A DNA stretch of 48,624 nucleotides. It comes from Candidatus Pacearchaeota archaeon. GTDB taxonomy: Archaea; Nanobdellota; Nanobdellia; Pacearchaeales; GW2011-AR1. Shown in pieces: positions 1 through 47,343 of this stretch (position 1 is the stretch's first letter; each line of letters opens with the position of its first letter). Made by a program: the position numbers and the translations under genes. The notes under the pieces were generated by a model. That model did no database searches and was not told the origin of the DNA. It was given only the letters and a program-made list of their open reading frames with translations. The DNA lies in NCBI GenBank assembly GCA_002688875.1, contig NZDU01000041.1:1-48624 (forward strand), read 5' to 3'.

Positions 1-423
1 CTTCTCTTCCTCAGTTTTCTCTTCTTTCTTCTCTTCAACTTTTTCAGTTTTCTTCCCACTTTCAACAACAGCTTTAGCCTTCTTCTTCAACTCCCTACTC
101 CTCTTAAACTTCAAAACATCTGGAATATCAACCAACTCCACCCTCACAATCCCATCATCATACTTAACAGCCTTAACCTTAATCCGAGCCGGAGGTTTCT
201 TCTCCCCTCTAAACCTCATCTCATTATTCAAATCAACATCCAACTTTATCTTACCAAGATCTTTATCATAAACCTTCATATGATTCACTAAAAATTCCTT
301 AAGCGTCTTAACAGTCTTCCTACTCCTCTTATATTTAGGAACCTTCAACCATCCCTTCCTAAGCGGAACAATATACTCACGCGACAACACAACCTTGCTC
401 TCAACTTTTTTCTCTTTCGCCAT
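1..423 (-). CDS. rpl31e: 50S ribosomal protein L31e (eL31); 3' end runs off the window
   Basis: Own translation from ATG at 423: MAKEKKVESKVVLSREYIVPLRKGWLKVPKYKRSRKTVKTLKEFLVNHMKVYDKDLGKIKLD... This fits the eL31 pattern. The frame is open to position 1. It is absent from the ORF track because there is no stop in the window. Confidence 0.85.
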   Translation of the reverse strand, partial: MAKEKKVESKVVLSREYIVPLRKGWLKVPKYKRSRKTVKTLKEFLVNHMKVYDKDLGKIKLDVDLNNEMRFRGEKKPPARIKVKAVKYDDGIVRVELVDIPDVLKFKRSRELKKKAKAVVESGKKTEKVEEKKEEKTEEEK

Positions 424-430
424 TTTCTAA

Positions 431-637
431 TTATCCCAACTGAGGCTTCCTCTGCCTTCTAGGTTTAATTTTTAATTTTGTCCTTCTCCAATTCCTTCTT
501 ATACTTGTTATAGCCGAAGGATGCACCCTTTTCCCACTTCCATACTTCCTCAAAACAGCCCAAACCGGCGCCCACTTCGTTCTCTTCCCAGCTTTACTCA
601 ACTTAATCTTCCTTTGCTGTTTTCGTTTTTCTCTCAT
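431..637 (-). CDS. rpl39e: 50S ribosomal protein L39e (eL39)
   Basis: KLSKAGKRTKWAPVWAVLRK...RRNWRRTKLKI matches the eL39 core. ATGA overlap with the upstream ORF. Confidence 0.85.
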   Translation of the reverse strand: MREKRKQQRKIKLSKAGKRTKWAPVWAVLRKYGSGKRVHPSAITSIRRNWRRTKLKIKPRRQRKPQLG

Positions 638-1065
638 TGTTTAACCACTCCACTATTTAATGATTCTAAATATTTAACCAATTTACTCCTCTTTTCCTTT
701 ACAATTTCTTTTAACTCATTAGGAATATGAGAAAAATTATCTGCAAAATAAAATCCAGGGTCGCCCCTCACTTTTAATCCTGTACTATTATCTTCACCAT
801 TCAAAAATACAACTACACCATCATAATCAGCCCTAGGATTTCTATCTTCATCTTTTTTATAGGCCACAAGTAATGGATTAAAATTATCAAGTTTTATAAC
901 AGCTCCTTCACGATTCCCAGGTACCATTGGTTTCACTTCATAATTTCCAGATTCATACACAATTTTATACTCACCCCTACTTCTTACTGGGAATAATTCA
1001 AAACAACTTTCCCCATCAACAAATCTAAGTCCTCTATGTTTATCTAACGTAGCATTTCCTATCAT
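634..1065 (-). CDS. Hypothetical protein (143 aa), unskewed codon class, embedded in the r-protein operon
   Basis: ORF track. ATGA overlaps at both ends (1062-1065 with rps19e, 634-637 with rpl39e). Codons end in A/T, unlike the neighbours. No family recognised. Confidence 0.6.
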   Translation of the reverse strand: MIGNATLDKHRGLRFVDGESCFELFPVRSRGEYKIVYESGNYEVKPMVPGNREGAVIKLDNFNPLLVAYKKDEDRNPRADYDGVVVFLNGEDNSTGLKVRGDPGFYFADNFSHIPNELKEIVKEKRSKLVKYLESLNSGVVKQ

Positions 1066-1481
1066 TCTATCCCCTCCATAAATTCCTTACCTTTATCCGT
1101 CAACCTTCTCCCAGCTCTCTTCCCACTCTCATTAAATCTCTCAATCAACCCCTCACTCTCCGCCTGTTGCAACAAAACTCTAATCATCTTCCCACTAGCC
1201 TTCTTAAATTTCTCAGGCTTCATACCCCGATTCTTCTTACTTCCATACCTAGTCTTCAACCTATTAACTCCCACAACATTCTGAACATAAATCTGCCGAA
1301 GTATACTCGCCGCCCGCTTAAACCAAAAATCATTATCAAGCGGAGGCAACTTCTTACTCAACCCACTCTTAACATACAAACTCCACTCCGGCTGCTCAAA
1401 CCCCTCCAACTTCTTAAGAGCCTCAGCTAACTTAGAATTATACTCATTCGCATTCATCGAATACACTATACTGGTTTTCAT
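1062..1481 (-). CDS. rps19e: 30S ribosomal protein S19e (eS19)
   Basis: NSKLAEALKK...PEWSLYVKSG...DFWFKRAASILRQIYV..VGVNRLKTRYG...LLQQAESEGLI is the typical eS19 pattern. Confidence 0.9.
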   Translation of the reverse strand: MKTSIVYSMNANEYNSKLAEALKKLEGFEQPEWSLYVKSGLSKKLPPLDNDFWFKRAASILRQIYVQNVVGVNRLKTRYGSKKNRGMKPEKFKKASGKMIRVLLQQAESEGLIERFNESGKRAGRRLTDKGKEFMEGIE

Positions 1482-1699
1482 TTTTTGTTTTACACTCCAT
1501 CAGGCATCCCTTTCGGAATTAGATAAGCTCGCAGAGCAAATTAACCTAATTATATCTAGAAAAAGAGTTTATAAATCTTACTCTATTGTTCTTATCATGA
1601 AAAATTCATCTAAAAAAATGACAAACCTCTTAAATCTCTTACTTCTAATAGCATATATATCTTTATTAATATTCATAATAATAAATCTATTATCATAAA

Positions 1700-1930
1700 A
1701 TGTCAGGCCCAGGATTCGGAAAAAAACTCTTAGGAAAAGCAAATGTCTATATCCACGAAAAAGGCAAAAGCAACGCACGCATCACTCATATAGACATAGA
1801 ACTCCCCGAACTAAACAAAATAATAAAACCAAAAGAACCAACCTATGTCCAAGGAAAACCTGGAGGGGTATTCATAGGATTAAAAAAGGAAATGATTAAG
1901 AGAGCCGAGGAATTATTAGACAAAGATTAA
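1700..1930 (+). CDS. Hypothetical small protein (76 aa)
   Basis: ORF track. Codons end in A/C, as expected for a resident plus-strand gene left of the skew switch. Confidence 0.45.
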   Translation: MSGPGFGKKLLGKANVYIHEKGKSNARITHIDIELPELNKIIKPKEPTYVQGKPGGVFIGLKKEMIKRAEELLDKD

Positions 1931-1974
1931 CCAAAAAAGAAACTTCTAAACCACTCTAATATTTGAGCAAAGAT

Positions 1975-2715
1975 ATTATAATGCGCCCGTAAAACTATCC
2001 AGCCTTTAGGCTGTGGATATAAGGGCGCGCGACAGTAGAAACGCTTTTACAATTCTAAGTATTAATAAAAGAGAGTTAGATTGTAACTCTCTCTAGAATT
2101 TCCAGTGATAGTTAGAACTTTCTCAAACTAATTAAATCTTTCTCTTGCTATTGCAAGAGAAAAAAGGAGACAAAAATGAAACAACAAACACTTAGCGAGA
2201 GCTATAAAGAAATTAAATATGAGAAGATCAACCATATGGTTGGAATGTCGATGTGGCACTTTGAGTGGTGCTCAAAGTATAGATATAAAGCTTTCAGGAA
2301 ATGGAAGTACAAAAAGTTAGCAGAAGGTTGCTTACGAAAGGCAGCAACCGAGTATGGAATCAAATGGTTTGAGCTTGATGTTCAACCAAACCATGTTCAT
2401 GGGAGCGCATCCATTCCAATGACCATGACTCCTTCAAAGGCTTTAGGACTTTTGAAAGGAAGAGCATCTAAACTGTTCTTTGAGAGGTGTCCAAATATGA
2501 GACTTCGATACAAGAAGGGGCATTTGTGGAGTCGAGGAAAGTTTGCAGCTTCATTAGGATTTGTCAATCTTGATGTAGTGAACAATTACATCAAGAATCA
2601 AGACAAACATCATAAAACAAAGTGGATTACGGAGTGACTAGAGGTTAGGAAGCTGGGGTCCGGAGCGAAGCGGAGGACTGGCCCGAAGGGCCACCCTTTA
2701 GGGCCCAGAGGATGT
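1975..2715 (+). mobile_element. IS200/IS605-family element (tnpA only); ends approximate
   Basis: tnpA is flanked by GC-rich imperfect hairpins. Left: gcgccc(1983-1988)...gggcgc(2023-2028), enclosing tatccagcc/ggctGTggata. Right: GUCC-GGA-GC-GAA-GC-GGA-GGAC (2658-2678), ggccc-gaa-gggcc (2680-2692), and the alternative gggcc...ggccc (2688-2706). Confidence 0.55.
2176..2637 (+). CDS. tnpA: IS200/IS605-family Y1 (HUH) transposase TnpA, or a RAYT-like relative
   Basis: WHFEWCSKYRYK..., HUH motif in QPNHVHGSASIP, and LWSRGKFAASLG. C-terminal helix VVNNYIKNQ aligns with the catalytic-Tyr helix of IS608 TnpA (VVKQYIENQ). 153 aa. Confidence 0.85.
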   Translation: MKQQTLSESYKEIKYEKINHMVGMSMWHFEWCSKYRYKAFRKWKYKKLAEGCLRKAATEYGIKWFELDVQPNHVHGSASIPMTMTPSKALGLLKGRASKLFFERCPNMRLRYKKGHLWSRGKFAASLGFVNLDVVNNYIKNQDKHHKTKWITE

Positions 2716-2750
2716 CACAAAGTATGTATTAGAGTTTAAAAGTGTATCTT

Positions 2751-3122
2751 TTATTTATGGATAAATTGCATTATGTGTAAGGTTAGGATGGCGAATCCTG
2801 CTGCTATTCTTATGATTCTTGTTAGTTGTCTTTTTATTGTTGCGTTTGGATGTTCGAAGATTCTTGCTAGACCTTCGACGATTAGAAATACTCCTGCTAA
2901 GAAAGCTAGGATGTCTATGATTATTGGATCTAAGTAACTGCAAGCGTTTAAGGATTTTTGGCCGTTGAGTTGGACTGTTATTGCAAGGATGATTGCTATA
3001 AGAGATGTTAGTAGAGTTGTTAGTAGAGTTGTTAGTAGAGTTGTTAGGATTGTTTTTTTGAGATTTGTTGAAATGTTCTTTTGAGATTTTTTATTTTTAG
3101 ATATTTTTTCCCTCTTTTTCAT
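2751..3122 (-). CDS. Small membrane protein with a (TTLL)n repeat
   Basis: Lys-rich N-terminus followed by hydrophobic segments. A/C-ending codons, the resident minus-strand pattern right of the switch. Confidence 0.55.
   Translation of the reverse strand: MKKREKISKNKKSQKNISTNLKKTILTTLLTTLLTTLLTSLIAIILAITVQLNGQKSLNACSYLDPIIIDILAFLAGVFLIVEGLARIFEHPNATIKRQLTRIIRIAAGFAILTLHIMQFIHK
3007..3049. repeat. 12-bp tandem repeat gttagtagagtt, about 3.5 copies, inside the CDS
   Basis: Read directly at 3007-3018, 3019-3030 and 3031-3042, plus a partial copy. Encodes TTLLTTLLTTLL. Confidence 0.9.
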
Positions 3123-9563: not shown

Positions 9564-9917
9564 ATGGTTGGACATAACAATAGTGTGAAACAAAGGCGAG
9601 GAAATGCTCAATATCTGGCTTCTAAAAGATTAGGAGAACCATTATATACTTCAAGTCAGGTGAGTAGAATGATAAAAGAATCTGTTGGTAGGGGGTATAA
9701 GCTTCCTGGGAAGGCAGCAATTGAATCTGAAGTAAGAGCTGGTAATTTTGGTATAGATATAAGTGAATTTGATGGTATTGAGATTGATTCAGCTAATGGA
9801 GATAATAGATATCAAATTAGAAAATCTGATTTAGTTAAGGTTGTTAGAGTTATTGATTTAGGAATAGATGTTGATGATCTGGTTACTGCTGCTTGTGTTC
9901 TGGGTTTTAAAACTTAG
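9564..9917 (+). CDS. Hypothetical protein (117 aa), unskewed class
   Basis: ORF track. TATA-like gtttataagg lies about 25-30 nt upstream. No family recognised. Confidence 0.5.
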   Translation: MVGHNNSVKQRRGNAQYLASKRLGEPLYTSSQVSRMIKESVGRGYKLPGKAAIESEVRAGNFGIDISEFDGIEIDSANGDNRYQIRKSDLVKVVRVIDLGIDVDDLVTAACVLGFKT

Positions 9918-12498: not shown

Positions 12499-12505
12499 TT
12501 TCTAC

Positions 12506-12590
12506 GCTTTCGGATTTGACTTCGTCTAAATCCTTCGCTAAAGTGTTGGTAGTGCTAAATAATTATTAGATCGAGATTGTGGTTTTCTTT
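12506..12590 (+). repeat. Modular intergenic element, copy L1 (hairpin + M1 + TATA-like + M2)
   Basis: Hairpin ggatttga-CTTCG-tctaaatcc (12512-12533), gttggta (12545-12551), taaataat (12556-12563), gagattgtggttttcttt (12573-12590). Confidence 0.7.
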
Positions 12591-12622
12591 GAAGTTGAAT
12601 ATAACTTAATAGATTGTGATTA

Positions 12623-18164: not shown

Positions 18165-18436
18165 TGGTTTTGAGTAGAAGTAGACTTAAGGTTCTTCAGG
18201 ATTCTTATGAGCGTCTTGAGATGTATGTTAAATCTAAGAGGAATAGTGAGGGAAAGTTAGCTGAGAATTTATTCTGGGATGGTAAATTTAATGGATTGGA
18301 TTCTAATTTCTGTAATTTAGTTAATAGTTATGATAGTTCAGATACAGATGTTTCAGATTGCAAGGTTAGATATGATTCGCTTATGGAATTTGTGGAATCA
18401 GAAGCTTCGGAGGTATCTGGAAATCAGGAGTCTTAA
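18164..18436 (+). CDS. Hypothetical protein (90 aa), unskewed class, between gatC-like and gatA
   Basis: ATG at 18164 overlaps the gatC-like stop (TGATG). Its stop at 18434-18436 lies 1 nt before the gatA ATG. Confidence 0.45.
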   Translation: MVLSRSRLKVLQDSYERLEMYVKSKRNSEGKLAENLFWDGKFNGLDSNFCNLVNSYDSSDTDVSDCKVRYDSLMEFVESEASEVSGNQES

Positions 18437-18437
18437 A

Positions 18438-19787
18438 ATGATAAAAGAAAAATTAAAGTTGATTAAATCTGGGAAGCTTTCGGCTGTTGATAATGTTAAA
18501 GGGTTTATTGATAAGATTAAGAGGGAGAATAAGAAGATGAATATTGTGTTGCATGTTAATGGTGATGCTGTTGAGCAGGCTCGGGTGGTTGATGAGAAGA
18601 TTAAGAAAGGGAAGACTGGGAAGTTGGCGGGTTTGGGGTTTTTGGTTAAGTCAAATATTAATGTTGAGGGGTTGATTGCTAATTGTGGTTCTCGGACTTT
18701 GGAGAATTATAAAAGTACTTATGATGCTACGGTTATTAAGAAATTGCTTAGCGAGGATGCTGTGGTTTTGGGGATGGCTAATATGGATGAGTTTGCTTGT
18801 GGTGCTAGTGGGGAGAATAGTGCGTTTGGGGTTTGTGTGAATCCTGCTGCTAAGAGTAGGGTTCCTGGAGGGAGTAGTAGTGGGGCTGCTAGTGGGGTTG
18901 CTGCAGGGTTTTGTGATTTTGCTCTTGGTTCGGATACTGGGGGGTCGATTAGGAATCCTGCGAGTCATTGTGGAGTTGTGGGGATGAAGCCGAGTTATGG
19001 GATGGTTAGTAGGTATGGGTTAGTTGATATGGCTATGAGCTTTGATCAGATTGGGCCTCTTGCCGAGGATGTTGCTGGTTGTGAGGTTGTGTTTGATGTG
19101 ATAAAAGGTAAGGATGATAATGATGCTGTGAGTCGGGATTTTGTGGAAGCAAGTTCTTCAAAGGATTTGAAAAAGATGAAAATAGGGGTTTTGAATATGA
19201 GTGCCGATCCTAGAATATGGGAGTTGGTTACTAATAGGATTAAAGAGGTTAAAGGAGATAAGTGGAAGGTTACTAGTTTTAATTTGGGGCATGTGGATCT
19301 TGGGATTCAAACTTATTATCCGATTGTTTATGTTGAGTTTTTTTCTGGGACTCGGAAGTTTGATGGGAGGAAGTATGGTTTGAATATAGATGAGGTTGGG
19401 GGTAAGGAAGTGTTGAGGCGTATAATTGGGGGTGGGGAGATAAGTAAGGCGGAGTTTGCGGGGAAGTATTATCGTCGTGCTTTGAAGGCTAAGAAGATAA
19501 TTGCTGATGAATTTGAGAAGGCTTTTGAAAAGTTTGATTTTATTATATTGCCTACTGTTCCTAAGTTGCCTCATAAGGTTGGGAAGAGGTTGAGTCTTGA
19601 TGATGAATATGATTATGATGCTTTGACTGTTTTGGCTAATTTGGCTGAAGTGCCTGCTATTAGTGTTCCTGTTGGTTTTGTGAATGATAAGGGGGAAGAG
19701 GTTCCGGTTGGGTTGCAGATTCTTGGTGCGCGTGGGAGCGATGAGGGGTTGTTGGGGGTTGCGAAGGTGTTTGAGGGTGAGGAATAG
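18438..19787 (+). CDS. gatA: Asp/Glu-tRNA amidotransferase subunit A (amidase family)
   Basis: Amidase signature GGSSSGAASGVAAG...GSDTGGSIRNPAS. Start at the ATG at 18438 (MIKEKLKLIKSGK). The upstream part of track ORF 18330 is a read-in. Confidence 0.9.
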   Translation: MIKEKLKLIKSGKLSAVDNVKGFIDKIKRENKKMNIVLHVNGDAVEQARVVDEKIKKGKTGKLAGLGFLVKSNINVEGLIANCGSRTLENYKSTYDATVIKKLLSEDAVVLGMANMDEFACGASGENSAFGVCVNPAAKSRVPGGSSSGAASGVAAGFCDFALGSDTGGSIRNPASHCGVVGMKPSYGMVSRYGLVDMAMSFDQIGPLAEDVAGCEVVFDVIKGKDDNDAVSRDFVEASSSKDLKKMKIGVLNMSADPRIWELVTNRIKEVKGDKWKVTSFNLGHVDLGIQTYYPIVYVEFFSGTRKFDGRKYGLNIDEVGGKEVLRRIIGGGEISKAEFAGKYYRRALKAKKIIADEFEKAFEKFDFIILPTVPKLPHKVGKRLSLDDEYDYDALTVLANLAEVPAISVPVGFVNDKGEEVPVGLQILGARGSDEGLLGVAKVFEGEE

Positions 19788-19853: not shown

Positions 19854-20237
19854 ATGGTAAATTATGATAGGTATACTGATTCCACTGTACATGTTGCTAA
19901 TGAAATTCGAGATAGATTGATCGAGTTTTATCATGAGATTCATGTTGCAAATTTATCTTTTTTTGGATTCCCTTATGGGCATATTGTGGGGGGTTTGAGA
20001 AATAAATTAGATGTAGGTTCAAAGTGTACTCCAGAAGAGATTGCTAAGGCTTATATAAATGAATGGAATGATGAAGAAGTTTTACTTTGTTCTGTTGAAC
20101 CAGTTCAATCCAATGGTGAAGTGGGTAAAATATTTGTATATTCGCCGGATAGAGTGGTATTGGATCGATGTGAAAAAGTTGCTAAATTAATTCATGAGGA
20201 TATGAAAGTAGAAGAATATTTTGGTCATTTGGTGTAA
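19854..20237 (+). CDS. Hypothetical protein (127 aa), unskewed class
   Basis: ORF track. No family recognised. Confidence 0.5.
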   Translation: MVNYDRYTDSTVHVANEIRDRLIEFYHEIHVANLSFFGFPYGHIVGGLRNKLDVGSKCTPEEIAKAYINEWNDEEVLLCSVEPVQSNGEVGKIFVYSPDRVVLDRCEKVAKLIHEDMKVEEYFGHLV

Positions 20238-20357
20238 GTCTTGATGGTTATACTAACTTAATGTTCAATATAAAGATAGTAGGTTATAAGATTTAGGTTA
20301 ATTGTAACTCAGGGCAGTTTTAGGAAGATTTTTAAATTAAGGGTTGATTTCTGAAGT

Positions 20358-20480
20358 ATGGGATTTAAGGAAGAATTGAGTAATGTGATTGAGTTAAGTA
20401 GTGAGGAGCTTGGGAAGATTCCTAAGGGGTTTCAGAGGATTGGGGATATTGTGATTATTGGTTTGTTGAGATTTGAATAA
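20358..20480 (+). pseudogene. Truncated duplicate of the trm5 5' end (40 codons)
   Basis: MGFKEELSNVIELSSEELGKIPKGFQRIGDIVIIGLLRFE* compared with the intact MGFKEELVGVIELSSEELDKIPKGFQRIGDIVIVDLSRFD at 21157. The DNA similarity starts upstream of the ATG. Confidence 0.8.
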
Positions 20481-20753: not shown

Positions 20754-21125
20754 ATGTATTGTTTAGATACTAATATTGTTATAGATTTATTGAAAGGGGA
20801 TAGGGAGTTATCTTTAAAGCTGGATAGTATTGAAGGGAGATTGTTTATTTCACCCATAACTATATTTGAGCTGTTTAAAGGAATAATTAATGAAGATGAA
20901 GTTAGGGTTATTGAAGATATGTTGTCTGAGTTTAGTATTTTAGAGTTTTCTATTGATGTAGGTAAGACTTTTGGCGAGCTGTTTAGAAATTTAAAAAATT
21001 CTGGAAGAACGATTCCAGAATCTGATTTAATGATTGCATCTTTTATTAAATCACATAATCTGATCTTTGTTACACGTGATAAGAAACATTTTGATAATAT
21101 TGGCGTTAAGGTTGAATTTTGGTAG
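20754..21125 (+). CDS. vapC: PIN-domain toxin VapC
   Basis: MYCLDTNIVIDLL (first Asp), FELFKG (Glu), ESDLMIAS (Asp) and FVTRDKKHF. Confidence 0.85.
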   Translation: MYCLDTNIVIDLLKGDRELSLKLDSIEGRLFISPITIFELFKGIINEDEVRVIEDMLSEFSILEFSIDVGKTFGELFRNLKNSGRTIPESDLMIASFIKSHNLIFVTRDKKHFDNIGVKVEFW

Positions 21126-21156
21126 GTTATTTAAATGGTTAATTGATTTCTGAAGT

Positions 21157-22017
21157 ATGGGATTTAAGGAAGAATTAGTTGGAGTGATTGAATTGAGTAG
21201 TGAGGAGCTTGATAAGATTCCTAAGGGGTTTCAGAGGATTGGAGATATTGTGATTGTGGATCTTAGTAGGTTTGATGATTCTCGGAAGGTTGAAATTGGG
21301 GAGGGGATTTTGAAAGTGTTTCCTTATATTAAGACGGTTTGTAGTAAGGAGGGGCCTATTGGTGGGGAGTTTAGGGAGCCTTCGGTTAAGGTGGTTGCGG
21401 GTCTTGAGGATACGGTTGTGACGCATGTTGAATCGGGGATTAAGTATAGGTTTGATGTTTGTAAGATTATGTTTGCTAAGGGGAATATGGTTGAAAGGGT
21501 TAGGATTCCTAAGTTGGTTAAGGATGGAGAGGTTATTGTGGATATGTTTGCGGGGATTGGGTATTTTTCGCTTGGGATTGGGAAATTGGCTAGGCCTGAG
21601 AAGGTTTATGCGATTGAGTTGAATCCGGTTTCGTTTGGGTTTTTGGAAGAGAATGTTGGGTTGAATAAGATTTCGGATAGGGTTGAAGTGGTTAATGGGG
21701 ATAATCGGGAGGTTATTGATGGGTTGGTTGCTAATGGTGTGAGGGCAGATAGGGTTGTGATGGGGTATTTGCCGCCTCCGAAGGAATTTCTTCCATGGGC
21801 GTTTAAGATTGTTAAGGATAATGGGGTTATTCATTATGAGGATTTGGTGAATGTGGATGATGTTGAAAATGAGGTTGAGAGGATTGTGAATGAGGTTCGT
21901 GAGGTTGCTAATGGGTGTGGGAAGGATGTGGAATTGGTAAGTGATAGGAAGATAAAGTCGTATGGGCCTAAGGTTGGGCATTGGGTGTTTGATATTAGGG
22001 TTGTGGGTAAGGTGTAG
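21157..22017 (+). CDS. trm5: Trm5/Taw2 (Met-10+ like) tRNA methyltransferase / acp-transferase family
   Basis: MFAKGNMVERVR, DMFAGIGYFSL and ELNP motifs. Confidence 0.8.
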   Translation: MGFKEELVGVIELSSEELDKIPKGFQRIGDIVIVDLSRFDDSRKVEIGEGILKVFPYIKTVCSKEGPIGGEFREPSVKVVAGLEDTVVTHVESGIKYRFDVCKIMFAKGNMVERVRIPKLVKDGEVIVDMFAGIGYFSLGIGKLARPEKVYAIELNPVSFGFLEENVGLNKISDRVEVVNGDNREVIDGLVANGVRADRVVMGYLPPPKEFLPWAFKIVKDNGVIHYEDLVNVDDVENEVERIVNEVREVANGCGKDVELVSDRKIKSYGPKVGHWVFDIRVVGKV

Positions 22018-30579: not shown

Positions 30580-30625
30580 ATTGTAGGTAGTGTAATGTAG
30601 GTGTTTGAGATACGTAAGTGTTCTT
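30580..30625 (+). repeat. Modular intergenic element, copy L2 (M1 + TATA-like + M2, no hairpin)
   Basis: attgtaggtagtgtaatgtaggtgtttgagatacgtaagtgttctt aligns along its length with the mcm-upstream copy at 40652-40716. Confidence 0.6.
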
Positions 30626-30645
30626 GATAGATGTTTGTAAAAAAA

Positions 30646-33308: not shown

Positions 33309-33428
33309 CTCGTATGAAAATCCAGGAACCTAGGTTTCTAGATGCGACCTCCTGTTTTATTGTTCTGACAAGTCACCTTTCCTAGGTAACCTGGCGGTTT
33401 ATTTATTTTGATTGTTGGTTGTTATAAT

Positions 33429-33533
33429 GCTCCGCTACCCACTTCGTTGGGTAGCTCCGCATATTTTATTGGTAAGTTATAATTACAAGGAGAGTTTTGT
33501 AAGTATTCTCTTTGTGAGATGAGTGTTTCTCCT
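33429..33533 (+). repeat. Modular intergenic element, copy L3 (hairpin + M1 + TATA-like + M2)
   Basis: Hairpin ctaccca-CTTCG-ttgggtag (33435-33454), attggta (33467-33473), tataat, then ttctctttgtgagatgagtgtt (33506-33527), identical over 22 nt to 40690-40711. Confidence 0.75.
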
Positions 33534-33777: not shown

Positions 33778-33922
33778 ATTTTTTTATCCTCCCTTGTAAT
33801 TTAAGGTCTTTTGATGATTTAGCTATGTTTTATTGGTATTTAAAGGTTGTTTAAGTGTGGGGAGGGGGTTTTTTGGGTGTGGGGAAGGGAGGGGTTCGGG
33901 GGAATTGGGGGGTTTTGTAGAA

Positions 33923-36571: not shown

Positions 36572-36716
36572 GTTGTTGGTTGTTAGTAGGGATATTTAAG
36601 TTTATTTGTGATTGAGTTTACTTGTTGTTTGTGTTTTTTTAATGAGGTCTGTGTTCTTTTAGTATAATGTGTTTCCCATTAACATATGTCACCCTCTAAA
36701 ATAATTTATTGCACAT

Positions 36717-36826
36717 AAAATTTAGGAAGCTTCGCTAACCTAAATTTTATTATTTTATTGATATCTGATAAATAATCCAATATATGATTAAGTAATCCTA
36801 GATCTCTAGGGTCTAGATGTTCTTTT
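36717..36826 (+). repeat. Modular intergenic element, copy L4 (hairpin + M1-like + TATA-like + partial M2)
   Basis: Perfect 10-bp stem aaaatttagg/cctaaatttt (36717-36726 / 36739-36748) encloses agCTTCGct, which reads GCGAAGC on the minus strand. It is followed by ttattttattgatatctgataaataat (36750-36776), nearly identical to 47289-47312, and then agatgttctttt. Confidence 0.7.
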
Positions 36827-37588: not shown

Positions 37589-40500
37589 TTATACATTCTG
37601 CACAAACCCCGTTTTGGGTTGGAAAATGTCCCCGGACTTTTTGAGTTTTTCTATGGCTTCTTCGAATTCGTTGTCGTTTAGGTCTTTGAGTTCTTTTCTT
37701 AGTTCGTTTAAAGGGATTTGTTTTCCGAATTTGTCTTCTAGGTTTTTGATTGTTTCTCTTAATAGGACTATTTTGTTTCTTTGGCTGCTGGAGATTTTGG
37801 ATGTGAAACGGTCTATGTCGAAGGTTTTTGTTTCTGGGTCGTAGCCGACTTGCATTAAGTAGTAGTTTGTTAGTCTGATTGCTACTTGGGCATCTTGAGT
37901 GTCTACGGTGTGTGATAGGCGGGATTTCGCGTGGGCTTCGGCTAAACGGACTAGTCCTTGGAGTTGTCTTGCTGAGATTGAGATGGATCTGGATTCTCCT
38001 TCTTGGCTTGCTTTTCTCATTTTGACGTAGAAGTTCTTGATTTCGTTGACTGCTTCTTCGGTTAGTTTTGGTTCTATTTTTTGTTTTGCGTAGGCCACAT
38101 ATTTTTTGAAAAGGTCTGCTTCGATGTCTGGTATTTTGTCTTTCATTTGATGTAGGTTTAGGACGTGGGTTGCTATTGCGTCGTCTTGTTTTTGGTTTGG
38201 GAGATCTCTGAGGATGAAGATTAGGTCGAATCTGTTGATTAGGGCTGGGGGTAAGTCGATTTGTTCAGAGATTGATTGAGATGGTTCAAAACGGCCGTAT
38301 TTTGGGTTTCCGGCGGCTAGGACTGAGGTTTGTGCTGAAAGTGTGTTTCCCTGGATGGCTATTTTTCCATTTCTTCTTGTTATGAAGAATCCTGTTTCTG
38401 TTTCGAAGCAAAAGACTTTTCCGTTGTAGTTTATCTCTTTTATGTGTTTGGAATCTTTTCTGATGCAAAGCTCTGTTTTGTCTGATAGTGAGATTCGGTA
38501 CATATCTTTTCGGTTTCCTCTTTTTTCTCCTTTATAGTTGAGGTTTTTATTTGCTGATTTTCCGATTAGGCAGGCTATTGCTTGGAAAGTGTCAATTAGT
38601 TCTTGCGAGGTTGATCCGTAAGACTTATTATCTGATGATCCATCTCCCAACATCATGGCATTATATAAGATAATTAATTGGTTTTTTGATAAGTCTGATA
38701 GTTTTATGTCTTCAGACGGAAATCTTTTGAGGTAGCTTTTTTTGCCTAGTTTTTCTAGATATTTAGATAATTGAGTGTTTGTTATCTTGAATTTTGTGTA
38801 ATCTTGTTTTTTTATTTCAGTTAGGGTGAATCCTATGTGTGAGGATAGTTTTGTTAGACAGGATTTTATTTTTTTTATATTTTCTTTGTTTTTCTGTGTG
38901 ATTCCTATTGTTGGTTTGGTTTCGATTCCGCCTTCTGTTAAATAGTATCCTAAGAATTCTAGCCATAGGTCTAATGGGATTTTTTTTGGTTGGTGTTGGT
39001 GAGTGTATTTTGGGTGTTTTCTGTTTTGTTTGTGTTTGATTGGAGGTAGGATGAAGTGGTTAGTTGTTTTTTTGTTGATGAATTCTCCGGAGTTGAGGAC
39101 TTTTATTCTTTGATATGGGATGTCTTTAGCTTTTATTTCTTTGTAGTGTTTGTGTCTTTCTTCTTTTAGGAGCATTTTGTGGTCTGGAGTTACTAGTATG
39201 TCGTTTCTTTTATTTTTGAAATGGAACATTTTTCCTTTGTGATTATATTCATAGAGTCCTTTGTGAGTGATGAAGTTTATTGTTTTTGTTTTTGGGTTGT
39301 ATTGTGCTATTTTTAGTTTTTTTATTTCGTTGTATTTTTTCCATCCTTCTTCAGTTAGAGTTTCTGTGTCTTCTGAATAGCATGCCTGAACATTAGCTTT
39401 TGAAATTGTTACGGTTTGCTGTTCTAGGGCTTCATGCATGGCCGATCTGTCGGTTGCGTCCATTTTCTCTATTTCGTCTATGCAGATTACTCCTTTGTTT
39501 GCTAGGACCATTGCTCCGGCTTCTAAGCTCCAACCTTTTAGGAATTCGTCTTTGACTACTGTTGCGGTGATTCCTGCTCCTGTTGCTGCTTTTCCTACTA
39601 TGTAACGTCCTTTGGGGGCTATGTTTGATATGAATTTTAGGGTTACGGATTTTGCTACACCTGGATCTCCTATTAGGAATAGATGGATGTCTCCTCTTGA
39701 TACGGTTCCGTCTTGACTTGTTTTTCTGACGCCGCTGAACATTTGGAGGACTAATGCTTCTTTGATTTCTTCGTATCCCCAGATACTTGGTGCGATGCTT
39801 TCTCTTAATTTTGTGAATAGTTCTGGGTCTTCGGCTAGTTCTTGGATTTGTCTTTCGTCTTCTTCGGATATGTCTAGGTCTTCGTAAGTTGCTTCTAAGG
39901 GGATGAGGTTGTTGGCTTCAACTGCTAGGTCGAAACGGGTTGAGATTGCGCCGGTTTGTAATGGGACTGGGACTTCTTTTAATATCCCAAGGATTCTGAC
40001 TTTACTTCCAGGAGTTGTTTTTTCTTCCATGTTGGGTTCTACTAAATCTTCTTTTAAGAAAACGTTTAAACGTCTTGGTTGTTCTCCTCCGATTAGTGAT
40101 TCTGGGGATTCTTCGATGACTAAACGTTGGGCATCGACCATGACTTTGCTTAATAATCTGAATTGGCCTTTTCTTCCGCAGGAACATCTTGAGGGTTCTC
40201 TAAATTTTTTTTCGATTTGGAGAACTGAGATTACTGTTCCGCATGAAGGGCATTCGAATTTGGCGTTTACAACTTGAGGTCTTACTTCGGATGCTTGTCT
40301 TACTAAACCTTCGAAGTAGATTAGCTGGTTTAGATGGTGTGAACGGATTGTTCTGATACGTACTTTTTGGGTTTCTGGGAGGTTGAGGAATCTGATTCTG
40401 GGAGTTTTTATTAATCCTGAGTCTTCTAATGCTGTTTCTAAGAGTTGGAGGATTTCTTCTGGATTTCCTATGAGGGCTTCTGCCAGGACTGGGGAGTTTG

Positions 40501-40630
40501 AAGATAGGTCGTCGAAATTTACGAAGATTACTTTTTTACCTTTTCTTATTGACTCGCCTATTTCTTTTTTGTAAGTGTCGAAGAAGAGTTTTGCTTCTGC
40601 GATTAGTTCTTCTGTGTTTGATTGTGGCAT
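37589..40630 (-). CDS. mcm: MCM replicative helicase, interrupted by an intein
   Basis: Zn finger CPSCG...CSCG, Walker A GDPGVAKS, Walker B ICIDEIEKM, sensor-1 SVLAAGNP and arginine finger region SRFDLIF-like (NRFDLIF). 1013 aa including a 346-aa intein. Confidence 0.95.
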   Translation of the reverse strand: MPQSNTEELIAEAKLFFDTYKKEIGESIRKGKKVIFVNFDDLSSNSPVLAEALIGNPEEILQLLETALEDSGLIKTPRIRFLNLPETQKVRIRTIRSHHLNQLIYFEGLVRQASEVRPQVVNAKFECPSCGTVISVLQIEKKFREPSRCSCGRKGQFRLLSKVMVDAQRLVIEESPESLIGGEQPRRLNVFLKEDLVEPNMEEKTTPGSKVRILGILKEVPVPLQTGAISTRFDLAVEANNLIPLEATYEDLDISEEDERQIQELAEDPELFTKLRESIAPSIWGYEEIKEALVLQMFSGVRKTSQDGTVSRGDIHLFLIGDPGVAKSVTLKFISNIAPKGRYIVGKAATGAGITATVVKDEFLKGWSLEAGAMVLANKGVICIDEIEKMDATDRSAMHEALEQQTVTISKANVQACYSEDTETLTEEGWKKYNEIKKLKIAQYNPKTKTINFITHKGLYEYNHKGKMFHFKNKRNDILVTPDHKMLLKEERHKHYKEIKAKDIPYQRIKVLNSGEFINKKTTNHFILPPIKHKQNRKHPKYTHQHQPKKIPLDLWLEFLGYYLTEGGIETKPTIGITQKNKENIKKIKSCLTKLSSHIGFTLTEIKKQDYTKFKITNTQLSKYLEKLGKKSYLKRFPSEDIKLSDLSKNQLIILYNAMMLGDGSSDNKSYGSTSQELIDTFQAIACLIGKSANKNLNYKGEKRGNRKDMYRISLSDKTELCIRKDSKHIKEINYNGKVFCFETETGFFITRRNGKIAIQGNTLSAQTSVLAAGNPKYGRFEPSQSISEQIDLPPALINRFDLIFILRDLPNQKQDDAIATHVLNLHQMKDKIPDIEADLFKKYVAYAKQKIEPKLTEEAVNEIKNFYVKMRKASQEGESRSISISARQLQGLVRLAEAHAKSRLSHTVDTQDAQVAIRLTNYYLMQVGYDPETKTFDIDRFTSKISSSQRNKIVLLRETIKNLEDKFGKQIPLNELRKELKDLNDNEFEEAIEKLKKSGDIFQPKTGFVQNV
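38345..39382 (-). mobile_element. Intein with a LAGLIDADG homing-endonuclease domain (residues C417-N762 of the mcm ORF)
   Basis: Extein junctions are ...TISKANVQA|CYSEDTE... and ...KIAIQGN|TLSAQTSVLAAGNP. Block B is VTPDH. LAGLIDADG motifs are LEFLGYYLTEGG and NAMMLGDGSS. Codon boundaries were checked on the DNA (tgc at 39380-39382, aac at 38345-38347). Confidence 0.85.
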
Positions 40631-40651
40631 TTTGTGATGGAAATTAATTTA

Positions 40652-40716
40652 ATTGGTAGTTTGTAAATTCTAGGTGAGATAGGTGAGTGTTCTCTTTGTG
40701 AGATGAGTGTTCTCTT
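40652..40716 (+). repeat. Modular intergenic element, copy L5 (M1 + TATA-like + two tandem M2 units), directly upstream of mcm
   Basis: attggta (40652-40658), tttgtaaat, then ggtgagat-a-ggtgagtgttctcttt-gtgagatgagtgttctctttt. gagtgttctct recurs at 40685 and 40705, a 20-nt period. Confidence 0.7.
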
Positions 40717-40827
40717 TTTTGGTTGTTAAACATCTTTTATTTGGGGTCCTCCTTTTCTGTATGGTAAGTAGAGGTTGGGGATTTATAAGTATTTATTGGG
40801 TTTAAAGAAGGGGATGTGAAATAAAGA

Positions 40828-41262
40828 TTAGTCTCTTTGATAGTTTTCTATTTTTCTGAAGGGTTTATATCCAATTTCTTCTGATATTTCTAATACTTCA
40901 AAATCTATTTTGTATTTTTTATGGTCAGTAAATCTGTGTGGAAAGTCCATGAATTTGATACCCCATCCTTTATCTGTCATAGTTTCTAATTTTTCATCAG
41001 GGATTTCAACCAATCCTTTTTTTACTTTTCTGGAAATGTTTTTCTTCATGAATTTGTGAGCAATTAGATGGTTTGTAAAAAGAGGGATTATTACTTTTCC
41101 GTTTTCTTCTCTTAGTGCAAGTAAGGGGAGCCATCCTTCATTTATGCATTCATATCTAATGTTTTGGGTAGAAAGATTTCCGTCATTATATAGAATTGCG
41201 TATTGTTTTTTTGTTGGTTCTTTTCTTTGTTCGGATGTATTGTCTGGTATATTTCGTAACAT
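40828..41262 (-). CDS. Hypothetical protein (144 aa), unskewed class
   Basis: ORF track. TATA-like cttaaataatt (minus strand) lies about 25 nt upstream. Confidence 0.5.
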   Translation of the reverse strand: MLRNIPDNTSEQRKEPTKKQYAILYNDGNLSTQNIRYECINEGWLPLLALREENGKVIIPLFTNHLIAHKFMKKNISRKVKKGLVEIPDEKLETMTDKGWGIKFMDFPHRFTDHKKYKIDFEVLEISEEIGYKPFRKIENYQRD

Positions 41263-41340
41263 TTTTATTATTGGAAATTTAATTATTTAAGTATTGTGTT
41301 TAGAATGGGCTGATTTTAATTATTGTTTGTTAGTTGTTAG

Positions 41341-41898
41341 TTATCCCTTGTTCTTCTCAGCTTCCTTTAGTGTAGCTACGAGTTGGTCCATTGAATCTGC
41401 TAGTTGTTGGTTGTTTTTTGTTCCGGTGCAGACTAGCTTTCCGTTTGAAAATAATAGGAAGGTTGCTGGGGGGTCGACTAGTTTATAGACTAGGCCTGGG
41501 AATTGTTCGGGTTCGTATTCTGTGTTTTCGAGTTCTAGTGATAAGTAGTTTAGATTTAGCATCATGTCGATGCTTCCGGATGCTACGATGTTTTGGACGG
41601 TTATTTTTGGTTTGTCTGTTATTTTGACGTTGATTTTTTTTAGGGTTTTGATTACTTGCTCTATGACTTCTTTTACTTGGGCTATTGATTTGGTTCCTGT
41701 GCAGACTAAATTTCCAGAGGAGAAGACTAGGACTGCTGATTTTGGTTCTTTGACTCTTAGAACTAGTCCTGGGAATTGTTCGGGATTGTATTCGGTGTTG
41801 GGGATTGTTTTTGCTAGTTTGGTTAGTGGGACGTCTTTACCAAGAGAAGTTGTTGCTACGATGTTTTGGATTTTTGAAGAAACTTTTGATTTTGCCAT
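41341..41898 (-). CDS. tbp: TATA-box binding protein
   Basis: Two direct repeats: IQNIVAT...YNPEQFPGLVLR...LVFSSGNLVCTG and VQNIVAS...YEPEQFPGLVYK...LLFSNGKLVCTG. Confidence 0.95.
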   Translation of the reverse strand: MAKSKVSSKIQNIVATTSLGKDVPLTKLAKTIPNTEYNPEQFPGLVLRVKEPKSAVLVFSSGNLVCTGTKSIAQVKEVIEQVIKTLKKINVKITDKPKITVQNIVASGSIDMMLNLNYLSLELENTEYEPEQFPGLVYKLVDPPATFLLFSNGKLVCTGTKNNQQLADSMDQLVATLKEAEKNKG

Positions 41899-46477: not shown

Positions 46478-47188
46478 TCATCCTTGCAACTCAATAGTTA
46501 GAAAATCGTTTTTGAGTTTGTATCTTAGGATGGGGAGGTTGAGGTTTAGGCTTTTTGAGTAGAGGTGTTTGTTTGAGAGGGCTTTGATTTCGATTGAGTT
46601 TTCTAGTTGGTTGATTAGAATGTCTTCGACGGATTTGACTCCTGGGACGTGGAGTTCGTAGACGATTTTGTTTGAGATACGTTTTAGTTTTGATTGGGGT
46701 TCTTTTTTTGGGAGTTTTGAGGATTTTTTTAATTTGTCTGTGAATACTTTTGGGTCGATTCTGATTTGGTTTACTTGGGCTTGAGTTTGTTGTTGATTGT
46801 TTTGGTTATTGAGGTGTTGATTGTTTGGGTTGTTGAAAACTTTTTTACCGTTTACGAAGAATTGAATGTTTAGATCGTTGGGAAGGTTTTGTCGATGTCT
46901 TTTATTGCGGGGGTTCATGGGGTGGTTTGGGTTTCTTGCGACTTCTTCGTTTAAGTTTCTCATTTGGTTTTCTAGCATTTTCATTGCGGTGCTGAACATT
47001 TTGTCCATGAAAGAGTCTGAGAAATTAGGGAAGGAATCTTGGATTGGTTCTTCTACTGAGTCGTTTCTTCCTAGGAATCCGAAGTCTTCTTTTTCGAAGT
47101 TAGAGTTGAGGTCGCTACCACATGATGGGCAGAATTCAAAGTCTTTTCTGACTCTTGTGTTGCAATTAGAACATTTGTTTCCGAACAT
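46478..47188 (-). CDS. Zinc-ribbon protein with an Asn/Gln-rich linker and a C-terminal Hsp20/alpha-crystallin-like domain
   Basis: MFGNKCSNCNTRVRKDFEFCPSCGSDL, then NNPNNQHLNNQNNQQQTQAQVNQ, then VYELHVPGVKSVEDILINQLENSIEIKA...LNLPILRYKLKNDFLTIEL. Start moved to the ATG at 47188. Confidence 0.65.
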   Translation of the reverse strand: MFGNKCSNCNTRVRKDFEFCPSCGSDLNSNFEKEDFGFLGRNDSVEEPIQDSFPNFSDSFMDKMFSTAMKMLENQMRNLNEEVARNPNHPMNPRNKRHRQNLPNDLNIQFFVNGKKVFNNPNNQHLNNQNNQQQTQAQVNQIRIDPKVFTDKLKKSSKLPKKEPQSKLKRISNKIVYELHVPGVKSVEDILINQLENSIEIKALSNKHLYSKSLNLNLPILRYKLKNDFLTIELQG

Positions 47189-47255
47189 GGTAATGTTAAT
47201 GATGGTTGATTTAAAAGGTTTTGGATGGGGTTTGGTTGGAATTAGTATTGCATTA

Positions 47256-47343
47256 GTTCCACATCCCACTTCGTTGGGATGTTTCACTTATTTTATTGGT
47301 ATCTGATAATAACATTTATATCGAGATGTAAGTGATTTTTTTT
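47256..47343 (+). repeat. Modular intergenic element, copy L6 (hairpin + M1 + TATA-like + M2)
   Basis: Hairpin catccca-CTTCG-ttgggatg (47262-47281), attggta (47295-47301), tctgataataac, then gagatgtaagtgatttttttt (47323-47343). Confidence 0.75.

Follow-up and report, generated by a model that had tools for sequence, protein, structure and literature searches.

Among dispersed intergenic repeats, the BIME and REP mosaics are bacterial, REPIN populations have been described (PMC8049555), and prokaryotic promoters are known to be reused separately from their genes as 'mobile' promoters (PMC3575422). Miniature elements derived from IS200/IS605 insertion sequences (IS), the PATE, occur in archaea and cyanobacteria. 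These are the closest known kinds to the six intergenic elements L1 to L6 treated here, which lie in contig NZDU01000041.1 of a Candidatus Pacearchaeota archaeon (positions 1 to 48,624; "the window" denotes all 48,624 nt) and are read throughout in minus-strand orientation. The repeats are real, but the family they form is looser than first described. Judged from sequence, they may tentatively be read as species-specific mosaic repeats that act as promoter and leader cassettes spread by duplication, and not as autonomous genes. Dispersed non-coding repeats are rare in very small DPANN genomes, and no paper describing them in Pacearchaeota was found in the literature.

The window holds an archaeal gene set (MCM, TBP, FtsZ, eIF2-beta and eIF1A). 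Its MCM protein is nearest to those of metagenome-assembled genomes named Pacearchaeota, Nanoarchaeota or 'archaeon', and identical genes are present in Tara Oceans contigs. The relatives with three-digit numbers (L072, L076, L174 and others) are metagenome loci, and an MCM-anchored scan gave 80 loci. A sister strain is represented by L072, L144 and L150 with about 92% nucleotide identity to the window, and a sister species with equally strong strand skew by L174 and L181-L183 with 82-84% protein identity. The unskewed relatives compared include L074, L076 and the syntenic L079.

Module anatomy and family membership

Up to three modules make up an element on the minus strand. The first (M1) is one or two 20-nt A/C-rich units, AAAGAGAACACTCATCTCAC, the second a TATA-like octamer followed within 2-5 nt by the core TA(C/T)CAAT(A/T)AAAT, and the third a hairpin that occurs in L1, L3, L4 and L6 only. 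All six copies named in the preliminary description were found where it had placed them, and their parts are as follows.

12499-12622, minus strand: L1, the entire spacer between the convergent epimerase and DUF1003 genes
Parts of L1, minus strand: M1-like AAAGAAAACCACAATCTCGAT (12570-12590), TATA-like AATTATTT (12557-12564), degenerate core TACCAACACTTT (12540-12551) and hairpin (12505-12541)
30580-30627, minus strand: L2 (marginal), M1-like TCAAGAACACTTACGTATCTC (30607-30627) and degenerate core CTACCTACAAT, no hairpin
33426-33463, minus strand: L3 two-tier hairpin, ATGC / GGA / GCTACCCA - ACGAAG - TGGGTAGC / GGA / GCAT
33463-33484, minus strand: L3 promoter-like core, TATA-like AATTATAA (33477-33484) and TACCAATAAAAT (33463-33474)
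33497-33533, minus strand: two tandem M1 units of L3, AAGGAGAAACACTCATCTCAC AAAGAGAATACTTAC, within the 75-nt L3-L5 match and its 22 identical nt
36715-36776, minus strand: L4, hairpin AAAATTTAGG-TT-AGC(GAA)GCT-T-CCTAAATTTT (36715-36750), core TATCAATAAAAT (36752-36763) and TATA-like ATTATTTA
40644-40717, minus strand: L5, with M1 twice (40678-40717), then TATA-like TTTACAAA and core TACCAATTAAAT (40645-40658), no hairpin
47253-47290, minus strand: L6 two-tier hairpin, AGT / GAA / ACATCCCA - ACGAAG - TGGGATGT / GGA / ACT
47290-47341, minus strand: L6 core TACCAATAAAAT (47290-47301), TATA-like TTATTATC (47305-47312) and M1-like AAAAAATCACTTACATCTCGAT (47320-47341)

Family membership was assessed by aligning whole spacers in minus orientation and comparing the scores with those of shuffles (z) in 15 comparisons. 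The 22-nt block reported as identical between L3 and L5 is confirmed (E=3e-7), the full match extending over 75 nt (z=19), and L3 and L6 are similar over 50-57 nt with 77-78% identity (z=11.6, for 50 nt in the shuffle test). The near-identity of L4 and L6 also holds, TTATCAGATA(C/T)CAATAAAATAA being common to both with 21/22 bases (z=4.5). The alignment of L2 with L5, put earlier at about 50 nt, comprises only 19 matched nt (z=3.8, p about 0.007 among the 15 comparisons). L1 aligns significantly with none of the other copies (z at most 1.1), but it shares the hairpin with its loop and the family spacings ATCTCGAT-N18-TACCAA and TACCAA...-N13-ACGAAG. On these alignments L3, L4, L5 and L6 rank as robust members, L1 as tied to them by structure and spacing, and L2 as marginal. 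The copies are mosaic, with different modules shared pair by pair, and alignment of the spacers gave no termini common to L1, L3, L5 and L6.

Hairpin structure and covariation

The hairpins of L3 and L6 have an outer stem of 3-4 bp, a purine 3x3 internal loop (GGA/GGA and GAA/GGA), an 8-bp inner stem and the loop ACGAAG, and L1 has an imperfect version with a 2-bp outer stem and a GAA/GAAA (3x4) internal loop. The apparent 'direct repeats' beside the L3 and L6 hairpins, and imperfectly beside that of L1, are the outer stem plus internal loop. Whether folded as DNA or as RNA (-19.2 kcal/mol, z -5.4), L3 returned the outer 4 bp, the 3x3 loop and the inner 8 bp, and the L4 hairpin folded as DNA has a z of -7.0. 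Perfect stems of at least 7 bp closed by a CGAAG/CTTCG loop were observed three times in the window against 0.08 expected, a number reached in 0 of 300 dinucleotide shuffles.

The compensatory swap between the L3 and L6 stems was verified and reaches the outer stem as well. When L3, its L072 orthologue, L6 and L1 are compared, 8 of 12 pairs are changed on both sides, and pairing is found in 87% of cells against at most 37% with the partners slid; the inner 14 nt CCCAACGAAGTGGG are common to L3 and L6. The stems are thus kept by compensatory change despite a strong C-to-T mutational bias that is expected to erode palindromes. From its sequence the hairpin appears to be under structural constraint, and it probably marks transcript 5' ends. 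The loop had been called invariant; CTTCG/CGAAG is indeed in the loops of the four window hairpins, but in the sister strain L072, where L3 is retained with an intact stem, the loop reads TCAAAG.

A covariance model of the hairpin, R1, was trained on L3, its L072 orthologue, L6 and L1, and scores L3 at 53.5 bits, L6 at 51 bits and L1, which is in the training set, at 38.9 bits. No further copy appeared: the window held none beyond those used in training, and no R1 match was present in 0.89 Mb of related Pacearchaeota loci, in sister-species contigs or in viral matches, the count being three model-detectable hairpins plus L4 in 48 kb. The pattern TACCAATAAAAYA-N(11-15)-ACGAAG gave 61 single matches among GTDB species genomes, all in unrelated bacteria and none in an archaeon, which is close to a rough chance estimate for a pattern of that size, and 6 matches in viral contigs, 0 of them with a hairpin. 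Rfam 15 gave no family at the elements up to E=1, and only the two tRNAs of the window reached the gathering score. Origin-recognition boxes and dif sites were considered and rejected, the copies being 3-18 kb apart and none beside an AT-rich unwinding region.

Old and new parts in relatives

The core is conserved at orthologous gene fronts. In L076 the sequence before DUF424 reads TTTATATACTATAAGATACCAATAAATTAAGAGGG...ATG, with the core TACCAATAAA in the promoter region, and the same TACCAATAAA core stands upstream of the Zn-ribbon gene in L174. The DUF424 upstream regions of L076 and L074 that are orthologous to L3 carry TACCAATAAAT / CAATAAAAT, and in L074 CAATAAAAT lies 18-20 nt ahead of the DUF424 ATG. 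The hairpin and the M1 unit, by comparison, are not conserved at these gene fronts, and neither was found in the 0.89 Mb of relatives. The hairpin is kept at L3 in the sister strain but is absent before DUF424 in L076 and L074 and from the L6 spacer of L174, where TTTTATAAGATACCAATAAT remains at the same place. Because relatives have the core without the hairpin at the same genes, the core is an old promoter piece of at least two genes, DUF424 and Zn-ribbon, and the hairpin and A/C-rich unit are new in the window species, with cassettes having entered new spacers. The M1 unit was also considered as a conserved factor site and was rejected, as it is missing in all relatives.

Insertion and absence polymorphisms were found at two further places. 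The stop codons of the DUF1003 and epimerase genes are 6 bp apart in the sister species L181, and therefore the whole 124-nt L1 spacer is an insertion. L4 lies in a 194-bp segment that is missing in the sister-strain contigs L072 and L144; its bounds, a 17-nt direct repeat plus 35 extra nt, are not those of a clean duplication. A separate insert is present in front of DUF424.

36624-36817, minus strand: L4-bearing indel segment, with the 17-nt direct repeat TGTTCTTTTAGTATAAT (plus) at 36652 and 36818 (repeat E=5e-4)
33309-33404, minus strand: insert of 96 bp, placed exactly at the start codon of DUF424 and bounded by the inverted ends CCAGGTTACCTAGG...CCTAGGTTCCTGG, missing in the sister strain L072

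The 96-bp insert holds a core-like GAACAATAAAAC and CATCTAGAAACCTAG, the latter resembling the L4 segment as judged by eye. It restores the ATG of DUF424 and takes away the proximal promoter of the gene. The DUF5679 promoter (33825-33838, TACCAATAAAAC) was tried as a seventh copy and discarded: the sister strain has AACCAAAAAAAC and L079 has CTTAAAAAAAC in its place, and the likeness is one of chance in an ordinary promoter.

Promoter context and the favoured reading

Genes in the window are almost all leaderless, their TATA octamer ending 20-22 nt ahead of the ATG. Archaeal promoters have such an A/T-rich octamer about 20-24 nt ahead of the transcription start. The distance from the end of the TATA-like octamer to the first base of the inner stem is 21 nt in L3, 22 in L6, 23 in L1 and 20 in L4, which equals the TATA-ATG spacing of the leaderless genes; if the octamer serves as a TATA box, transcription would start at the base of the hairpin. 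In L072 the L3 hairpin stands 21 nt ahead of the DUF424 ATG with no other TATA between them, and the mRNA must therefore start at or upstream of the hairpin.

That the copies are a shared promoter or operator cassette for minus-strand genes, as had been suggested, accords with the core at the orthologous DUF424 and Zn-ribbon promoters and with the octamer 20-23 nt before the hairpin base, but three of the five downstream genes have promoters of their own and L1 is without a downstream gene. The nitroreductase, peroxiredoxin and Zn-ribbon genes each have a canonical TATA 20-21 nt ahead of the ATG, and L2, L4 and L6 are located upstream of these promoters and are not core promoters; L2 has the 3' end of tRNA-Asn on one side and the nitroreductase promoter on the other. 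The mcm gene has no proximal TATA and stands behind a canonical promoter (40781-40798) and a 29-codon upstream open reading frame (ORF; 40644-40733, minus). L5 lies inside this ORF, downstream of that promoter, and ends 14 nt upstream of the mcm ATG. Nothing was found in favour of a stress regulon, as had been seen in part of the downstream genes.

The upstream ORF of mcm begins MFNNQKRE... and has a strong Shine-Dalgarno sequence, unusual where nearly all genes are leaderless. In L113 an MFN... ORF ends just ahead of the mcm ATG, and in L078 a short upstream ORF starting MLSQ... occupies the same place.

Public gene calls start the Zn-ribbon/Hsp20-like gene (46478-47287, minus) at GTG 47287, giving 269 aa and running through the L6 hairpin. 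The real start is ATG 47188 (236 aa), as indicated by the L079 and L174 orthologues and by a TATA 20 nt upstream. A hairpin that is coding sequence was rejected with this start and with L3 and L6 being read in different frames. A plus-strand terminator was likewise rejected, there being no plus-strand gene upstream of L3 or L6, and on the minus strand no T-run follows the hairpins of L1, L3 and L6.

The homology among copies, the covariation of the hairpins, the constant spacings, the orthology of the core and the insertion and absence polymorphisms are the observations behind the tentatively favoured reading. A cassette would consist of one or two A/C-rich units, the octamer with its core and an optional hairpin whose first paired base falls 20-23 nt past the octamer. 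Module 2, an old promoter sequence of DUF424 and Zn-ribbon, would have gained modules 1 and 3 in the window lineage, and whole or partial cassettes would then have been copied to other spacers, as L5 in the mcm leader, L4 before peroxiredoxin and L1 between convergent genes. With TBP/TFB on the TATA-like box, RNA polymerase would begin transcription at the foot of the hairpin, such that the transcript opens with a stable stem-loop, either as a hairpin-capped leader of a minus-strand gene or, at L1, as a short orphan RNA. From the layout of the elements we infer their activity as promoters, the point at which transcription starts and whatever influence the hairpin has on the stability or the translation of the RNA.

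Several points weigh against this reading. L1 has no downstream gene to drive, and L4, L6 and L2 would be redundant upstream promoters of peroxiredoxin, Zn-ribbon and nitroreductase. The start sites and promoter activity are predicted from spacing, and TATA-like octamers are common in AT-rich DNA. The position of CAATAAAA in L074 and L076 allows it the role of TATA box; in that role it would put the start within the hairpin loop, and the RNA would then lack the hairpin. The supposedly invariant loop is altered in the sister strain, and copy number is known only for 48 kb of the window species. Neither a copying mechanism nor clean termini or target duplications were found.

The family shows the intergenic DNA of one marine lineage to be growing by the copying of promoter-like cassettes and structured hairpins, and L1, L3, L4 and L6 offer concrete sites for asking if a copied promoter is active and if a 5' hairpin goes with a leadered mRNA. 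The gain is modest at present, since this is a familiar kind of element and not a new kind of system.

The IS200-type element and alternative explanations

One IS200-type element is present in the window and is listed for comparison only.

1983-2718, plus strand: IS200-type element of 736 bp, with tnpA at 2176-2637, 3' of TTATAAT (1976-1982)

Its tnpA product matches Pfam Y1_Tnp (E=5.6e-26), and at least five different flanks adjoin identical IS ends, the insertion lying 3' of TTATAAT every time. The right end was said to carry the same GAA-triloop hairpins as the copies, and GCGAAGC and GGCCCGAAGGGCC are both present there, in the hairpins GTCC-GGA-GC(GAA)GC-GGA-GGAC and then GGCC(CGAAG)GGCC. 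As in L3, an outer stem of 4 bp is followed by a GGA/GGA loop and then by an inner stem that C-GAA-G closes.

The copies had been proposed as REP- or MITE-like elements related to this TnpA. The behaviour of inserted or duplicated DNA is borne out by the 6-bp spacer of L181 at L1, the absence of L4 from two contigs and the missing L6 hairpin in the L174 spacer, but the link to TnpA is one of loop and hairpin architecture, and for the window elements it is a lead and not a finding. A reading in which the hairpins are REP/PATE-like single-stranded DNA substrates of the IS200-type Y1 transposase is unlikely, though a number of observations agree with it. In this reading TnpA or a related protein would recognise the two-tier GAA-loop hairpin and move short hairpin units that came to lie beside the AT-rich core, the promoter-like parts being target and not cargo. 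The IS looks active, with its five or more contexts and its insertion 3' of the TATA-like TTATAAT, and its right end is built like L3; in four loci the hairpin occupies a constant position past the core, and L5 and the L174, L076 and L074 orthologues lack it, as an inserted unit would lead one to expect; and GCGAAGC is an exceptionally stable DNA mini-hairpin (PMC13037366). Relatives add to these the 130-nt hairpin repeat of L079, which occurs in both orientations, and a module of it that abuts a tnpA fragment in L103. Against this, similarity to the IS ends is not significant (R1 gives 9.3 bits to the right end, E about 4), and BLAST of the elements against the window gave no match at the ends 1983-2175 and 2638-2718. 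No termini, target site or duplication is common to the elements and the IS, and no common target flanks the four hairpins, TTATAAT being beside the hairpin (plus) only in L3 of the window and missing in the sister strain, L1, L4 and L6. The GAA is read on the strand opposite the IS top strand, a poor fit to a common strand-biased mechanism; the homology of L3 and L6 runs far past the hairpin, which points to cassette copying rather than to separate hairpin insertions; and there are just 3-4 copies with strongly different stems.

The L079 repeat is about 130 nt long, sharply bounded and made of four hairpins, with loops that include CTTTAG, CCTTTAGG and CGAAG, like the IS ends; one of the hairpins is CAAATC-CGAAG-GATTTG. 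Its five copies per 22 kb (945-1087, 9696-9838, 18202-18344, 19083-19225 and, in reverse, 20031-20162) are up to 99% identical, and a second family of 83 nt has two copies in the same locus. The 130-nt repeat appears to be a miniature descendant of an IS200-type IS, and with the tnpA junction in L103 it follows that IS200-derived hairpin repeats do occur in the group.

Further observations were made on the IS itself. Its composition is unskewed, it ends in GGATGTCAC, its target TTATAAT resembles a TATA box, and the exact TnpA protein is found in 53 blocks of the contig collection. GC skew flips at the IS from -0.5 (window 1-2100) to positive (2100 onward), and most short contigs from other assemblies (L152-L157, L170, L172 and L173 were compared) break near 2000-2100. 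Two left and two right IS flanks occur, and all four ways of combining them are represented among the window, L170, L172 and L173. Accordingly the sequence before 2 kb may have been joined to the remainder through a repeat; the alternatives are an inversion mediated by the IS and a replication landmark at this point.

It is also doubtful, though worth weighing, that the elements have no function and arose as spacers grew by local duplication, by slippage of the 20-nt units and by patchy gene conversion between similar AT-rich promoter regions, the hairpins being quasi-palindromes from template switching and the similarities historical. Spacers in the window are far longer than those of relatives, with 283 against 100 bp between EndoV and Zn-ribbon and 325 against 8 bp between DUF5679 and DUF424 (both L079), and 124 against 6 bp at L1. 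The mosaic, pairwise sharing of modules is in line with such growth, as is the tandem unit number, which differs between strains (one M1 unit in L5 of L072 against two in the window). The L3 region diverges faster than the adjoining genes, with 82-89% identity against 90-93%, and the loop motif is changed in the sister strain. Three independent stems that are fully paired, with 8 of 12 pairs changed on both sides against the mutation bias, are at odds with it, and chance would hardly place the hairpin so constantly relative to core and TATA-like box in four loci.

A bolder proposal, which is quite improbable on present evidence, would make the hairpins archaeal counterparts of REP, that is, Y1-recognised single-stranded DNA units captured at transcription starts and creating hairpin-capped leaders. 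If true, an HUH transposase, the strand asymmetry of replication and the rewiring of promoters would be connected in one reduced archaeal genome, and leaders would be arising in an otherwise leaderless DPANN archaeon with one strand extremely exposed in replication.

There is little to recommend self-contained small-RNA genes, each with its own promoter and a trans-acting RNA of 35-110 nt starting with the hairpin. The predicted start sites at the hairpin bases, where the spacing fits, the lack of a gene downstream of L1 and the TTTT directly after the L4 hairpin on the minus strand agree with such genes. Past L1, L3 and L6 there is no common downstream sequence or terminator, and the elements are missing in relatives, unusual for a trans-acting RNA with a conserved target. 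They also match no Rfam family and have no H/ACA boxes, and a C/D-box sRNA was rejected since no RUGAUGA suitably spaced from CUGA was seen by eye in L4 or L6.

Least probable of all is an operator, with the palindrome bound by a dimeric repressor that blocks RNA polymerase at a small regulon: the inverted repeat is centred about 20 nt past CAATAAAA, at the start site if CAATAAAA is the TATA box, its inner 14 nt are common to L3 and L6, and an 8-6-8 inverted repeat over a predicted start site resembles known archaeal repressor-site geometry, but the half-sites differ among L3/L6, L1 and L4 such that one factor would be unable to read all of them, symmetric compensatory changes are not expected of a protein operator, L1 has no gene, and the hairpin is missing at the orthologous promoters of relatives.

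Strand composition

The plus strand of the window is T 38%, G 25%, A 25% and C 12%, with window-wide skews of +0.35 (GC) and -0.22 (AT). Beyond about 2 kb the GC skew is +0.13 to +0.66, mostly +0.2 to +0.65, irrespective of gene direction. The G/T-rich plus-strand version ascribed to the copies is true of them but not specific to them; because the skew is independent of gene direction, it is a genome-wide property.

Such extreme asymmetry is restricted to a small clade (the window, L001-L010, L072, L144, L150, L174 and L181-L183). The absolute GC skew is 0.27-0.47 in the window species and the one sister species at 82-84% protein identity, and near 0 in every remaining Pacearchaeota locus, also in MCM relatives with 81-83% identity. 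Comparable strand disparity has been reported for a Microgenomates bacterium (PMC7143001), and no DPANN report of it was found in a full-text literature search. This clade-specific asymmetry may be a more unusual feature than the repeat family.

Other features of the window and relatives

Between the TBP gene and the mcm promoter there is a 467-bp segment (40818-41284) that is missing in L072 and L150 and carries a 144-aa ORF matched by no Pfam family. MCM (37589-40630, minus) has 1013 aa against about 670 aa in many relatives; the extra length and the intein/LAGLIDADG Pfam matches indicate an intein, and some relatives have a larger one (about 1470 aa). Synteny with the window is lost past DUF424 in the sister strain (L072 13372-18473), and at L072 1-1076 an unskewed segment of about 1 kb beside the L15e gene has inverted ends CTGACATATGTCGTAAC / TTACGACATATGTC and, on the reverse strand, a long ORF, which makes a further insertion sequence probable. 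Repeats elsewhere in the window comprise a direct repeat at 20318-20476 and 21117-21275 (159 nt, 81% identity, 799 bp apart), a pair at 41416-41553 and 41689-41826, 273 bp apart inside the TBP gene, which probably reflects an internal TBP duplication, and a tandem 12-nt repeat GTTAGTAGAGTT of about 3.5 copies at 3005-3050, inside a 123-aa ORF beside the IS.

Comparison with known systems

The elements resemble BIME, REP and REPIN in being short, non-coding and intergenic, in combining a palindrome with other motifs in varied combinations, in having stems held by compensatory change and in the co-occurrence of a Y1 (HUH) transposase gene. Those repeats, however, are bacterial, number tens to hundreds of copies and often form inverted pairs, whereas 4-6 diverged copies in one orientation are known here from 48 kb. 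The bacterial repeats are accompanied by a single-copy, non-mobile RAYT; here the copies carry a promoter-like core, and the Y1 gene is part of an IS of the ordinary multi-copy sort with defined ends, in at least five contexts, and is not flanked by L-type hairpins.

With PATE they have in common hairpin repeats beside an IS200-type element and a loop and internal-loop plan as at the IS right end, and the relative L079 has a clear-cut family of that type. PATE keep both IS ends and the target rule, whereas the window elements have no significant similarity to either end, only the GAA and GGA/GGA loops being alike, and do not follow the TTATAAT insertion rule. The picture also departs from that of classical MITE: there are no common termini, the L4 repeat is not a clean duplication, and inverted ends are found only in the separate 96-bp insert.

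The likeness to mobile promoters lies in homologous promoter-region DNA before the unrelated mcm, DUF424, Zn-ribbon and peroxiredoxin genes, with signs of recent copying. The promoters described are of the bacterial sigma-70 type with high similarity, whereas those in the window are of the archaeal TATA type, 77-80% alike and of predicted activity, and one copy is without a gene. In bacteria, 5'-terminal stem-loops stabilise mRNAs, as in the ompA leader. A stable predicted hairpin at the 5' end of the transcript would be shared with that leader as a functional analogy only, the start here being predicted. Set beside these systems, the elements of the window are a new, small, lineage-restricted family within the broad class of dispersed intergenic repeats.

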